Assembly: GCF_016026235.1 (NCBI RefSeq)
Contig: NZ_CP065613.1
Origin: Escherichia coli
GTDB lineage: Bacteria; Pseudomonadota; Gammaproteobacteria; Enterobacterales; Enterobacteriaceae
Strand: one strand, 5' to 3'
Length of the DNA stretch: 64,000 bases
Shown here: positions 15,556 to 47,952 of the stretch, one piece after another
Numbering within the stretch: position 1 is the stretch's first letter
Layout of the letters: the number at the start of each line of letters is the position of its first letter
The notes under the pieces: model-generated
What the model was told of the DNA's origin: nothing
Databases searched by the model: none
The model's input: only the letters and a program-made list of their open reading frames with translations
Translations under genes and position numbers: made by a program

Positions 15556-17314
15556 ATGGAAAATTCACGCATCCCTGGGGAACATTTTTTTACCACCAGT
15601 GATAATACAGCGTTGTTTTATCGGCACTGGCCCGCTTTACAGCCTGGGGTGAAAAAGGTCATCGTCTTATTTCATCGCGGGCATGAACATTCTGGTCGTC
15701 TACAACATCTCGTTGATGAACTGGCGATGCCAGATACTGCTTTTTATGCCTGGGATGCCCGAGGGCATGGAAAAAGTTCGGGGCCGCGTGGTTATAGCCC
15801 ATCTCTTGCGCGTTCAGTGCGGGATGTCGATGAATTTGTCCGTTTTGCTGCCAGCGACAGCCAGGTTGGACTGGAAGAGGTGGTTGTGATCGCGCAAAGC
15901 GTCGGCGCAGTGCTGGTTGCCACATGGGTTCATGATTATGCGCCTGCAATTCGCGGGCTGGTGCTGGCTTCTCCGGCCTTTAAGGTTAAATTGTATGTGC
16001 CGCTGGCACGTCCTGCGCTGACGCTATGGCATCGTCTGCGTGGTCTGTTTTTTATTAATTCCTATGTGAAAGGACGCTATTTGACCCACGATCGGCAACG
16101 GGTGGCGAGTTTCAATAATGATCCGCTGATCACACGGGCGATTGCCGTCAATATCTTGCTCGATCTCTATAAAACGTCTGAACGTATTATTAGAGATGCG
16201 GCGGCGATTACGCTCCCCACGCAACTTCTGATATCAGGCGATGACTATGTGGTGCATCGCCAACCGCAGATTGATTTTTATCAGAGATTTACGTAGCCCT
16301 CTGAAAGAGCTGCATCTGCTGCCAGGCTTTTATCACGACACGTTGGGTGAAGAGAACAGGGCGCAGGCATTTGAAAAAATGCAAAGCTTTATTAGTCGTT
16401 TATATGCTAACAAGTCACAAAAATTTGATTATCAGCATGAAGACCGCACTGGACCATCAGCGGATCGCTGGCGCCTCCTTTCAGGTGGACCCGTGCCATT
16501 ATCGCCGGTTGATTTGGCGTATCGCTTTATGCGTAAAGCGATGAAATTGTTCGGGACGCACTCTGCGGGCCTGCATCTCGGAATGAGCACTGGCTTTGAT
16601 TCAGGCAGTTCGCTGGATTATGTCTATCAAAATCAACCGCAAGGCAGTAACGCATTCGGGCGCTTAATCGACAAAATCTACCTGAACAGTGTTGGCTGGC
16701 GCGGTATTCGCCAGCGCAAAACCCATTTACAAATACTGATTAAACAAGCCGTTGCCGATCTCCACGCCAAAGGTTTAGCCGTCCGCGTGGTTGACATTGC
16801 CGCAGGGCATGGGCGCTATGTACTGGATGCACTGGCAAACGAGCCTGCCGTAAGCGATATTTTATTACGTGATTACAGTGAGTTAAATGTTGCACAGGGG
16901 CAAGAGATGATTGCCCAACGGGGAATGTCTGGGCGGGTGCGTTTTGAACAGGGCGATGCGTTTAACCCGGAGGAACTCAGCGCGTTAACTCCGCGGCCTA
17001 CGCTGGCGATTGTCTCTGGACTGTATGAGCTGTTTCCCGAAAATGAGCAGGTAAAAAACTCACTCGCAGGTCTTGCCAATGCCATCGAACCGGGCGGCAT
17101 TCTCATCTACACCGGGCAGCCGTGGCACCCTCAACTGGAGATGATTGCCGGGGTGTTAACCAGTCATAAAGATGGTAAACCGTGGGTAATGCGCGTGCGT
17201 TCGCAAGGGGAGATGGATTCGCTCGTGCGTAATGCCGGATTTGATAAATGCACTCAACGGATTGATGAGTGGGGCATTTTTACGGTTTCGATGGCGGTGC
17301 GTCGTGATAACTGA
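15556..17314 (+). pseudogene. ynbC: alpha/beta-hydrolase + SAM-methyltransferase fusion protein, disrupted by +1 frameshift
   Basis: Two ORFs in different frames (15556..16296 and 16241..17314) together cover full-length YnbC. The first frame hits TAG at 16294-16296 just after a TTT run (16288-16290); the second frame continues the protein. Confidence 0.75.
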
Positions 17315-17327
17315 ACGCCGGAACGTA

Positions 17328-18620
17328 TTGCTACAAGGCGCTGGCTGGTTATTGTTGCTGGCCCCGTTTTTCTTCTTCACCTATGGATCTCTTAATCAGT
17401 TCACCGCGGTTCAGGACTTTAACAGCCATGATATCCCCAGTCAGGTATTCGGCTGGGAAACGGCGATCCCTTTTCTTCCCTGGACTATTGTTTCTTACTG
17501 GAGTCTGGATCTTTTATATGGATTTTCGCTGTTCGTTTGTAGCACGACATTCGAACAGCGCCGACTTGTCCACCGGCTTATTCTGGCAACGGTAATGGCC
17601 TGCTGCGGTTTTTTGCTCTATCCGCTGAAGTTTAGTTTTATCCGTCCTGAAGTGAGTGGGGTGACGGGATGGCTATTTTCGCAACTTGAACTGTTTGATC
17701 TGCCTTATAACCAGTCTCCTTCGCTGCATATTATTCTCTGCTGGCTACTTTGGCGTCACTTTCGTCAGCATCTGGCTGAGAGGTGGCGTAAAGTCTGTGG
17801 CGGATGGTTTTTACTCATCGCTATTTCTACTCTGACGACCTGGCAGCATCATTTTATTGATGTCATCACAGGGCTGGCGGTAGGTATGTTGATTGACTGG
17901 ATGGTGCCCGTCGATCGTCGTTGGAATTATCAGAAACCTGATCAACGTCGAATCAAAATAGCACTGCCATATGTCGTAGGCGCGGGCTCGTGCATTGTGT
18001 TGATGGAGCTAATGGTGATGATTCAGTTATGGTGGTCAGTCTGGTTATGTTGGCCAGTATTATCGCTACTCATTATTGGCCGTGGGTACGGTGGGCTTGG
18101 CGCGATAACAACAGGGAAAGATAGTCAGGGGAAACTCCCGCCCGCCGTTTACTGGCTGACATTGCCCTGGCGCATCGGGATGTGGCTGTCTATGCGTTGG
18201 TTTTGTCGTCGCCTGGAGCCGGTGAGCAAAATTACTGCTGGTGTTTATTTAGGGGCGTTTCCACGACATATTCCGGCACAGAATGCGGTTCTGGACGTCA
18301 CCTTTGAATTCCCTCGGGGACGAGCGACAAAAGATCGACTCTATTTCTGTGTACCGATGCTGGATCTGGTGGTTCCGGAAGAGGGGGAGCTCCGACAGGC
18401 CGTGGCGATGCTGGAAACATTACGCGAAGAGCAAGGCAGCGTTCTGGTCCATTGCGCGTTGGGATTATCGCGCAGTGCGCTGGTAGTGGCGGCATGGTTG
18501 TTATGTTACGGACACTGTAAAACCGTTGATGAAGCGATTAGTTATATTCGAGCCAGACGTTCGCATATTGTGCTTAAGGAAGATCACAAAGCGATGCTGA
18601 AATTATGGGAAAACAGGTAA
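17328..18620 (+). CDS. ynbD: Membrane protein with C-terminal CX5R protein-tyrosine/dual-specificity phosphatase-like domain
   Basis: ORF 17232..18620 overlaps the ynbC 3' end. Start is uncertain: TTG at 17328 (then [17 protein letters not shown]...) matches the 430-aa length I recall. Active-site-like [11 protein letters not shown] near the C-terminus. Confidence 0.75.
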
Positions 18621-46206: not shown

Positions 46207-47170
46207 TTATGACCTCCTGCTGCGGATACCAACAGGCGCAGCGCTGGTTGTTGTCACCACACGCTGTCAGCGCCGGGACGTTTTCACACTGTGCACCTGC
46301 CGCATAGCAACGATCGCGAAAAGCGCAGCCGTCAGGCAAATGGGTGAGGTTTGGTACCGTCCCTGGAATGGCGGGTAATGGCTGGCGTGGTACTCCATGT
46401 TCTGGTGCGCATTGCAGCAAACCAATGGTATACGGATGCCGGGGATGATGGATAACGTCTGCCGTCACGCCGCTTTCAATTACGCTTCCGGCATACATCA
46501 CGTAAACGCTATCGCACAGTTGCGACACCACGGCCATATCATGGCTGATGAACAGTACCGCAGTTCCACTGGCGCGGGCTTTATGTTTAAGCAAACGCAG
46601 TACCTGCAACTGTACCGTGACGTCCAGCGCCGTAGTCGGTTCGTCGGCAATAATCAATTGCGGCTCGCAGGAAAATGCCAGCGCAATCATAACCCGCTGG
46701 CGCATACCACCTGAAAGCTCAAACGGATAGCGCGACATAACTTCCACGGCATCCGGGATTTGCATCTCTTCCAGCAGGGCAATCGCTTTAGCTCTGGCTT
46801 CCCGACGACTTATTGGTTGATGATGGCGGATTACGTCCATCATCTGAAGACCTATTCGACGTGTCGGATTAAGAGCGGTCATCGGTTCCTGAAAGATCAT
46901 CGCCACTCGTGCGCCGCGCCACTGACGAAGCTGTTTTTCCCGAGCGTTAAGAACATCTTCTCCCAGCAGTGAAATCTGCCCCCGATGTACGCAATAACTG
47001 CCCGTCGGTAGCAGACGCATAATCAGCATTGCGGTGACTGATTTACCTGAGCCGGATTCTCCCACCAGACCGACAATTTCACTGCGGTTAATCTGCAAGG
47101 ACACATTGTTGAGCGCGTGAACATCACCGTTAAAACCGGGGAAACTCAAATGCAGCTGTTGAATGTTCTG
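46199..47170 (-). pseudogene. ddpD: D,D-dipeptide ABC transporter ATP-binding protein, 5'-truncated at a deletion junction
   Basis: ABC ATPase ORF (Walker A GESGSGKS) lacking its native start: the frame is open only to a TAA at 47171-47173 and the track start is TTG at 47149. Directly abuts the dosC fragment. Confidence 0.65.
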
Positions 47171-47952
47171 TTATTCAAATTCCTGGTGTTACGCATGGTT
47201 TGATTGAAAATACCGTCGAAATCCTGAATCAGACGAGAGATATGGCCCACTTCAGCAATGCCGCTGAAATAATGTCGACCTTTATGGTTAAACCACAGGC
47301 CAAAATCAGCCTGGCTTAAAGGCAAACTACTGCCTAAATCAGAATCCAGCAGGATTTTATAGATGATATCTATTTCCCATGAAAGTATTGAGGCTATTTG
47401 CCGTTCTTTTTCTTCTTCGGCGTTTTCCAGTAACGAGAAGATACGATAGTTTTCATCTTCTTTTGAGGCACTACTGTCACTAAAGGTAAACGCGCGGGTC
47501 ATCACTTCCATAGCGATATCAATACTGTTAATCGAGAAATGGTAGACCTGAAGTTTTTCTGCGGCAGAATAATCCGAAGAGAAGATTACCGGATAGAGGA
47601 TCTTTTTCAGCACCCGAAACCCCATCTCGACAATTTCTACCGGAATTCCTATGCGGGCATGCACTTCCGCGACGGTATGCTGGATTTGTATTAGCCTTTC
47701 GACATCGTCAACCTGGGCAGAAAGCACGTTAATAATCCAGCGTTCCATCGCACTCTTCAACTGCCGCTCAACTTGTTCATTACTCAAGAATTCTTCGGCA
47801 TGCGGGTCGATGCGGACAATTCGATAAAACTCAATACTCAGATAATGAGCATGCGCAACGGCAATTTCCGCGGCTTTAGCACGAATGGGCGGATCTGCCT
47901 GTTCGACAAGCCCGGTCCACTCATCTTTCATTCTTTTAAAATACATCTCCAT
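47146..47952 (-). pseudogene. dosC: Heme/globin-coupled diguanylate cyclase DosC, N-terminal fragment only (GGDEF domain missing)
   Basis: 268-aa ORF MEMYFKRMKDEWTGLVEQADPPIRAKAAEIAVAHAHYLSIEF... recognised as the DosC sensor domain; it ends at a TGA overlapping the ddpD start instead of continuing into a GGDEF domain. Confidence 0.75.

Follow-up and report, generated by a model that had tools for sequence, protein, structure and literature searches.

A 64,000-nucleotide stretch of an Escherichia coli chromosome (contig NZ_CP065613.1; hereafter the window, whose coordinates are used throughout) carries lesions in the ynbC, narZ, ddpF, ddpD, and dosC genes. The window very probably represents the chromosome of an enteroinvasive E. 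coli (EIEC) O143:H26 lineage, and the lesions would then be a stepwise, lineage-specific gene decay as in EIEC and Shigella. In megablast comparisons with pieces of the K-12 genome, the window extends from paaA' to ydeN (K-12 positions ~1.454-1.583 Mb) in five collinear blocks of 98-99% identity. Three gaps were found relative to K-12: ydbA, a block of ~49.4 kb between ydcA/yncP and narZ, and 7,355 bp between ddpD and dosC. When the genes were aligned singly to K-12 and then translated, five of the 48 K-12 orthologues located were disrupted, and the lesions comprise one frameshift, two transitions, two deletions, and one insertion sequence (IS). The initial annotation of this DNA had reported the ynbC frameshift, the narZ nonsense mutation with an IS, the ddpF nonsense mutation, the ddpD/dosC deletion, and the absence of the genes from hokB to narY, and all of these are present at the places reported.

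The lineage is indicated by the junction between the IS, an ISEc60, and narZ. It was found that contig JTCO01000067.1 carries this junction and the W232 stop codon of narZ in a 3,865-bp match of 100% identity that takes in 430 bp of the IS. The JTCO01 assembly is that of the EIEC O143:H26 strain 4608-58, which has multiple ipaH copies and a pINV of form A (PMC4319576). The lesions were expected to help to identify the source strain, and they led to the E. coli NCTC assembly GCA_900449985.1 (UGFA01000002.1; proteins STL95xxx), to which the window is 100% identical over 20.8 kb. Among 5,426 complete RefSeq E. coli genomes, FDAARGOS_943 is the only close relative (99.85-100% identity). It shows 36 small differences from the window in 47.4 kb and has none of the five lesions, its narZ, ddpF, ddpD, and dosCP genes being intact. 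The ISEc60-narZ junction, the dosC/ddpD junction, and the extra T of ynbC were found in none of the 5,426 genomes. These three features provide a practical fingerprint of the EIEC O143:H26 clade and its subclades.

FDAARGOS_943 itself is heavily eroded in the homologous region. Many IS1 and IS600 insertions are present, the paa operon is absent, and feaR, tynA, ydbD, ydcF, rlhA, maeA, ddpB, digH, and pqqL are pseudogenes. Its 155-kb plasmid (CP065616) carries genes of the pINV type (virK, capU, sepA, phoC, and a fragment of an IpaH-type gene) as well as a GNAT/DUF1778 toxin-antitoxin pair, and no ipa-mxi-spa genes were seen in the first 100 kb of the 155 kb. In an exact look-up of a protein of this plasmid, which gave 67 blocks, the NCTC assembly was not among the 10 places listed.

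The ISEc60-narZ junction and the large deletion

The narZ gene is reduced to nucleotides 1-1297 of 3741, a 5' stub on the minus strand (29621-30917) whose IS-adjoining end is the deletion endpoint in the alignment with K-12. Codon 232 of the stub has changed from TGG to TAG (W232amber, 30222-30224) inside a CCTGG Dcm site. The stub directly abuts a complete 1293-bp ISEc60 of the IS4 family (28330-29622, minus strand), which is the only IS in the window and is 100% identical over positions 1-1293 to plasmid copies. The element ends in 18-bp imperfect terminal inverted repeats with one mismatch, TGAGGGATCCCCAGAAAA and TGAGGAATCCCCAGAAAA, and encodes a DDE transposase of 396 residues (28349-29539, minus strand; PF01609 DDE_Tnp_1).

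The distribution of ISEc60 is narrow. The window copy is identical over its full length to annotated copies on large EIEC-type plasmids such as pCFSAN029787_01, and it is 99.8% identical to copies on two Shigella dysenteriae plasmids. The element is present on 85 of 72,556 plasmids, mainly large ones from EIEC-type strains, CFSAN029787 and 8-3-DC15 among them. On complete E. coli chromosomes, it is rarely seen outside a few EIEC-type strains. The target duplications are 11-13 bp in length in FDAARGOS_943 and four plasmid copies (11 bp in the four), and the motif GG(G/T)AAATCCCC was seen at four of the five sites examined, the remaining plasmid site being a poor match. ISEc60 thus appears to be target-specific, as judged from these few insertion sites. 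In pCFSAN029787_01, two ISEc60 copies lie in tandem with one target copy common to both.

The left flank of the IS in the window corresponds to an intergenic site between ydcA/yncP and hokB (K-12 position 1,491,911). The left target copy GGGGAAAATCCCC is kept (28317-28329), while the right copy has been replaced by narZ sequence starting with GGGGAAGGCC (29622-29634). In FDAARGOS_943, an ISEc60 lies at the identical site with the direct duplication of GGGGAAAATCCCC intact, followed by hokB and then by trg through narZ. The block missing from the window measures ~49.4 kb in K-12 coordinates (~50 genes) and ~45.5 kb in FDAARGOS_943, and it contains hokB, trg, opgD, tehAB, ydcSTUV, patD, ansP, nhoA, narVWY, and the 3' two-thirds of narZ. 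After the IS, the window continues with narZ from nucleotide 1297 towards nucleotide 1. Since the 5' part of narZ lies beside the IS in its native orientation, the missing block is explained by a deletion extending from the IS end. Inversion between two copies of the IS was rejected, because it would have put the 3' part of narZ beside the IS.

The locus resembles known IS-mediated adjacent deletions in each feature compared: the junction still has the IS but only one of the two target copies, the undeleted relative FDAARGOS_943 has the missing DNA directly beside its IS, and the far flank has kept its orientation. The block is absent from the window, and it may have been relocated elsewhere in the genome. 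The deletion may have arisen by any of three routes, namely intramolecular transposition, recombination with a second ISEc60 copy that was later lost, and microhomology joining initiated at the IS end. Six bases, GGGGAA, are common to the lost target copy and the narZ site.

The junction is found in independent samples. The IS-narZ junction and the W232 stop codon occur together in the 4608-58 assembly (JTCO01), LSGK01, SRR3578993, the SRR136270xx runs, and SRR30892832. A 145-residue open reading frame (ORF) whose stop codon comes from the IS terminus was found in 21 contigs, every one of which also has the 231-residue NarZ'. In the relatives, Illumina contigs end within ISEc60, a sign that those genomes have at least two ISEc60 copies.

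Lesions in ddpF, ddpD, dosC, and ynbC

The ddpF gene (45280..46206, minus strand) has a CGA-to-TGA change at codon 119 (R119opal, 45850-45852). Beyond it, a deletion of 7,355 bp has joined nucleotides 1-787 of dosC to nucleotides 20-987 of ddpD at position 47166, with 1 bp of microhomology. The 3' end of dosC, the dosP, ddpX, ddpA, ddpB, and ddpC genes, and the start of ddpD are lost. As aligned with K-12, the remaining ddpD (46199..47166, minus strand) lacks its first 19 nucleotides and its start codon. The truncated dosC ORF (47146..47952, minus strand) encodes DosC residues 1-262 followed by six out-of-frame residues; a chimeric DosC-DdpD protein was rejected since the reading frame is not kept across the join. 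The truncated DosC retains the globin sensor and a portion of the middle domain (Pfam Protoglobin and DosC_2nd), and no GGDEF hit was obtained with Pfam.

In an exact look-up, the 268-residue DosC' was found in 13 contigs including GCA_900449985.1 and three independent Logan assemblies. The dosC/ddpD junction is present in SRR17652784, SRR8186592, SRR30892832, and SRR23545530. The loss of this module recalls the variable sets of cyclic di-GMP (c-di-GMP) genes described in E. coli (PMC5635171), in that dosC is cut before the GGDEF domain and dosP is deleted. It differs from them in that the loss occurred by one 7.4-kb deletion, that most of the ddp operon is gone as well, and that it is limited to a subclade.

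The ynbC gene (15556-17314, plus strand) is 1759 nucleotides in length, compared with 1758 in K-12. A MAFFT alignment with K-12, FDAARGOS_943, and IAI39 placed an extra T at 16288-16290, where TT has become TTT (GAGATTACG to GAGATTTACG). The extra T creates a TAG at codon 247 (16294-16296), between the hydrolase and methyltransferase domains. The 5' fragment (15556..16296, plus strand) has 246 codons and encodes the alpha/beta-hydrolase domain, as indicated by the alignment and by hydrolase Pfam hits. The 3' remainder (16297..17314, plus strand), in a frame different from that of the 5' part, encodes the methyltransferase domain, for which PF12147 was found on a 355-residue downstream call. 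A 357-codon ORF starting from an ATG at 16241 (16247 according to the gene finders) and ending at 17314 covers this half. The frameshift may have split ynbC in two rather than inactivated it completely. The exact 246-residue YnbC' occurs in at least 24 contigs, including those of GCA_001907395.1, GCA_902503985.1, SRR13627094, and ERR9828666, with 99.94-100% identity over 20.7 kb.

Could the lesions be errors of sequencing or assembly, with a miscounted homopolymer in ynbC and false joins at the two deletions? The change in ynbC is indeed the extension of a T run, and the NCTC source assembly is presumably based on long reads, which counts for an artefact. Independent Illumina-derived assemblies of different projects reproduce each lesion to the base, and the deletion junctions are spanned there by single contigs. 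Artefacts, which the initial annotation had named as what would overturn its reading, are for these reasons next to impossible.

Mutations accumulated during decades of laboratory storage and passage are hardly more plausible. The source is a culture-collection strain, and 4608-58 has been in a laboratory collection and was studied by 1971 (PMC4319576). On the other hand, all five lesions occur in multiple other sequencing runs, and they are phylogenetically nested: the dosC/ddpD deletion is limited to a subclade, and the ddpF stop codon occurs with an intact operon in sister isolates. The lesions are not private to one culture-collection stock. The suggestion of a long-passaged lineage is refuted, as the lesions are common to independently sequenced samples.

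Order of events and recurrent stop codons

The comparison of the relatives suggests an order of events. The ISEc60 insertion is probably the oldest, predating the split from FDAARGOS_943. The extra T of ynbC, the W232 stop codon of narZ, the R119 stop codon of ddpF, and the IS-anchored deletion would all have followed that split. GCA_902503985.1 (which has the extra T of ynbC and the ddpF stop codon) and SRR13627093 (which has the ddpF stop codon and the IS-narZ junction) retain intact dosC-dosP-ddpXABCD genes, so that the dosC/ddpD deletion appears to be the youngest and the ddp operon seems to have been crippled before it. The narZ gene was hit twice, and the second hit, whichever it was, fell on a dead gene. 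The initial annotation had treated the lesions as independent events. They are independent as mutations, being a frameshift, transitions, deletions, and an IS insertion; functionally they are not, with ddpF dead before the ddpD-dosC deletion and narZ hit doubly.

The following scenario may be proposed. ISEc60 would have inserted at its preferred target GGGGAAAATCCCC between ydcA and hokB in the ancestor shared with FDAARGOS_943. After the split, a deletion from the right end of the IS, driven by transposition or by IS recombination, may have removed ~45-49 kb and reached into narZ. In the same period, point mutations would have changed TGG to TAG in narZ at a hotspot of Dcm 5-methylcytosine deamination and CGA to TGA in ddpF, and added a T to ynbC. 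Later, in a subclade, illegitimate recombination with 1 bp of microhomology may have removed the DNA from the 3' end of dosC through the 5' end of ddpD. The driver was probably a relaxation of purifying selection together with a small population size once the invasive lifestyle had been adopted, rather than selection for each loss. As predicted from the gene content, the lineage would be without nitrate reductase Z, D-Ala-D-Ala (Ddp) uptake and hydrolysis, and the oxygen-responsive c-di-GMP module DosC/DosP. Around 50 further genes would be lost, including trg, opgD, tehAB, ansP, and patD, and ynbC would be split. The functions affected had been listed as anaerobic respiration, dipeptide use, and c-di-GMP signalling; ynbC belongs to none of the three.

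The stop codons of narZ and ddpF required a separate assessment. Exact 121-bp window sequences around either stop codon were found in none of the 5,426 complete genomes, a search that a genome with the stop codon and one other difference would escape. The idea that the two stop codons are private to the clade, based on the lack of a 100% match in complete genomes, was refuted by draft assemblies with divergent backgrounds. The TAG at narZ codon 232 exists on IAI39-like (~96% identity), K-12-like, and EIEC haplotypes, that is, on at least three divergent haplotypes, and the IAI39-like carriers have flanking single-nucleotide polymorphisms (SNPs) within ~50 bp on both sides. The TGA at ddpF codon 119 is also found on backgrounds ~98% identical to the window in which the rest of the ddp-dosCP region is intact. 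Two metagenome contigs end exactly at ddpF codon 119. Both stop codons say little about lineage, since they have recurred in unrelated E. coli.

For narZ, the recurrence has a likely mutational cause. The context ACC TGG GGC has become ACC TAG GGC, so that the Dcm site CCTGG has become CCTAG by a G-to-A change. Coulondre et al. reportedly showed in 1978 that deamination of 5-methylcytosine at Dcm (CCWGG) sites creates hotspots for amber codons, as in lacI. The narZ codon resembles that case in its CCTGG context, in the expected CCTAG product, and in its recurrence on divergent haplotypes. It differs in that one carrier of a W232 stop codon has TGA, which is not the hotspot change. These features point to a recurrent hotspot mutation rather than shared ancestry.

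Were the losses individually selected, nitrate reductase Z, Ddp, and DosCP being costly to, or antivirulent in, an intracellular pathogen? Codon 232 of narZ has become a stop codon at least four times, FDAARGOS_943 has an independent stop codon in ddpB, and Shigella flexneri has its own NarZ truncation, a 214-residue product that is identical to NarZ residues 1-214 and was seen in at least 1000 contigs. The predicted Dcm hotspot accounts for the recurrence in narZ, however, and the alleles that recur are also found in E. coli distinct from the EIEC clade (95.9-99.6% identity). FDAARGOS_943, moreover, keeps narZ, ddpF, ddpD, and dosCP. Selection of each loss is therefore rather unlikely. The repeated, independent stop codons at narZ W232 and ddpF R119, together with the separate truncation in S. 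flexneri, also suggest a broader idea, which is put forward as speculation: nitrate reductase Z and Ddp could be lost repeatedly, perhaps by selection, in gut and invasive E. coli, with narZ codon 232 as a natural 'mutational switch' site. A literature search for narZ pseudogenes in Shigella gave nothing relevant. The hotspot stop codon of narZ and the sequence-specific target of ISEc60 are by-products of mild interest.

Lesion density and intact genes

The initial annotation had argued from the density of lesions to a Shigella-like reductive lineage. The lineage itself is largely supported, through the unique IS-narZ junction shared with the EIEC O143:H26 strain 4608-58, but density alone is not diagnostic, as K-12 and IAI39 demonstrate. 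Among the 48 retained orthologues, five are disrupted in the window, two in K-12, and none in the human commensal strain O8:H8 16F5M1D1, in which only hicA, yddL, and transposase remnants are flagged in the same span. The pseudogene load is therefore elevated relative to non-invasive E. coli, locally only. The binomial probability of 5/48 is 0.014 at a pseudogene rate of 3% and 0.09 at 5%, both rates being my own estimates for a typical E. coli. By itself, the density of lesions is weak evidence for a reductive lineage.

Several observations weigh against the assignment to a decaying EIEC lineage. K-12 has six annotated pseudogenes (ydbA, gapC, yncK, rhsE, yncI, and yddJ) and three IS copies in the same 129-kb ancestral span; the window has a single IS in its 64 kb, and its gapC and yddJK genes are intact. 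The ddpF and ynbC sequences are absent from 21% and 15% of complete genomes, respectively. According to PMC5635171, DosC is often absent in E. coli whatever the origin of the strain. Unrelated E. coli, including gut-metagenome contigs, also have the stop alleles of narZ and ddpF. For the NCTC assembly itself, the link to pINV and ipaH would rest on its relative 4608-58. Lastly, disruptive changes are to some degree expected to be frequent among very recent differences, whatever the lineage.

Most of these observations would fit an ordinary background, in which any E. coli has a few pseudogenes and deletions in a dispensable region near the terminus and nothing special is said about lifestyle; the binomial probability of 0.09 at the 5% rate is in line with this. 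IAI39 adds to them its own deletion, anchored on an IS3-family element, from the 3' end of aldA to the region upstream of pptA (locus 17661-20214); this neighbourhood thus seems prone to IS-anchored deletions in unrelated lineages. On the other side, the junction shared with 4608-58 places the window in an EIEC lineage with good probability, the commensal comparator has no disrupted orthologue, and a similarly large deletion at this site was found in only one other of the 5,426 genomes. Members of the clade also continue to gain disruptions at a high rate per SNP. Of the 36 small differences that separate the window from FDAARGOS_943, six are gene-disrupting, with three on either branch. Relatives with at least 99.9% identity, sampled over 8-21 kb each, have private disruptions: W85stop in ynbB, W312stop in gapC, Q80stop in dosC', a 5-bp indel in ydcF, and a 2-bp indel in adhP. 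These differences support a real and probably continuing decay in this clade, and an ordinary background alone is an unlikely account of it.

Stepwise decay in an EIEC lineage is in line with the reductive genome evolution described for Shigella and EIEC by Hawkey et al. (2020, PMC7373316), in which EIEC stands midway from E. coli to Shigella. In that study, EIEC had intermediate IS loads, with 71-164 insertion sites compared with 194-286 in Shigella (~190-290) and 32 as the E. coli median, and several of the IS types, seldom present in other E. coli, were proposed to have entered via pINV. The window resembles this picture in its probable EIEC lineage, in an IS type found mainly on invasion-type plasmids, in an IS-anchored deletion, in nonsense and frameshift pseudogenes of metabolic operons, in the nesting of the lesions by age, and in the continuing decay of sister strains. 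It is far milder than Shigella or FDAARGOS_943, with one IS in 64 kb and most genes intact, and some K-12 pseudogenes are intact in it. The antivirulence loci classically lost in such lineages (cadA, ompT, nadA/B, and speG) map outside the window. The phenomenon is already known, and nothing conceptually new is added to the picture of EIEC and Shigella reductive evolution. The window gives a small-scale view of the erosion of an invasive E. coli, in which an IS comes first, and dispensable functions of stationary phase and anaerobic growth are then hit by point mutations and deletions.

The fdnGHI genes, the gad system, and the paa operon had been considered intact, and the alignments agree: paaB to paaY, gadB and gadC, and fdnGHI are all uninterrupted. 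The sole in-frame stop codon of fdnGHI is TGA196 of fdnG. A match to the Rfam family SECIS_3 lies after it at 36310-36368 (84.3 bits; gathering score, 63), which indicates that TGA196 is a selenocysteine codon and not a lesion. Two genes that are pseudogenes in K-12 MG1655 are intact in the window, gapC (26130-27131, 333 codons) and the fused yddJ-yddK leucine-rich-repeat gene (32711-34042, 443 codons). The nitrate/nitrite transporter gene narU (30999..32387, minus strand; K-12 alignment) is intact and is orphaned upstream of the dead narZ.

Minor differences were also found in spacers. The autotransporter gene ydbA is absent at window positions 10407-10420, leaving a paaY-pdxI spacer of 232 bp; the gene is disrupted by IS2 and IS30 in K-12 and is intact in IAI39. 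The commensal 16F5M1D1 has the identical 232-bp spacer, and the absence of ydbA is thus a common state rather than a lesion of the lineage. The fdnI-yddM spacer is 228 bp in the window (40319-40546), 50 bp in IAI39, and 406 bp in K-12. A tandem-repeat scan of this spacer found nothing; the difference corresponds to a unit of ~178 bp, bounded by a 34-bp repeat, that is present in zero, one, and two copies in IAI39, the window, and K-12, respectively. The RydC small RNA is intact at 27861-27924 on the minus strand (Rfam, 92.5 bits), ~400 bp before the IS.

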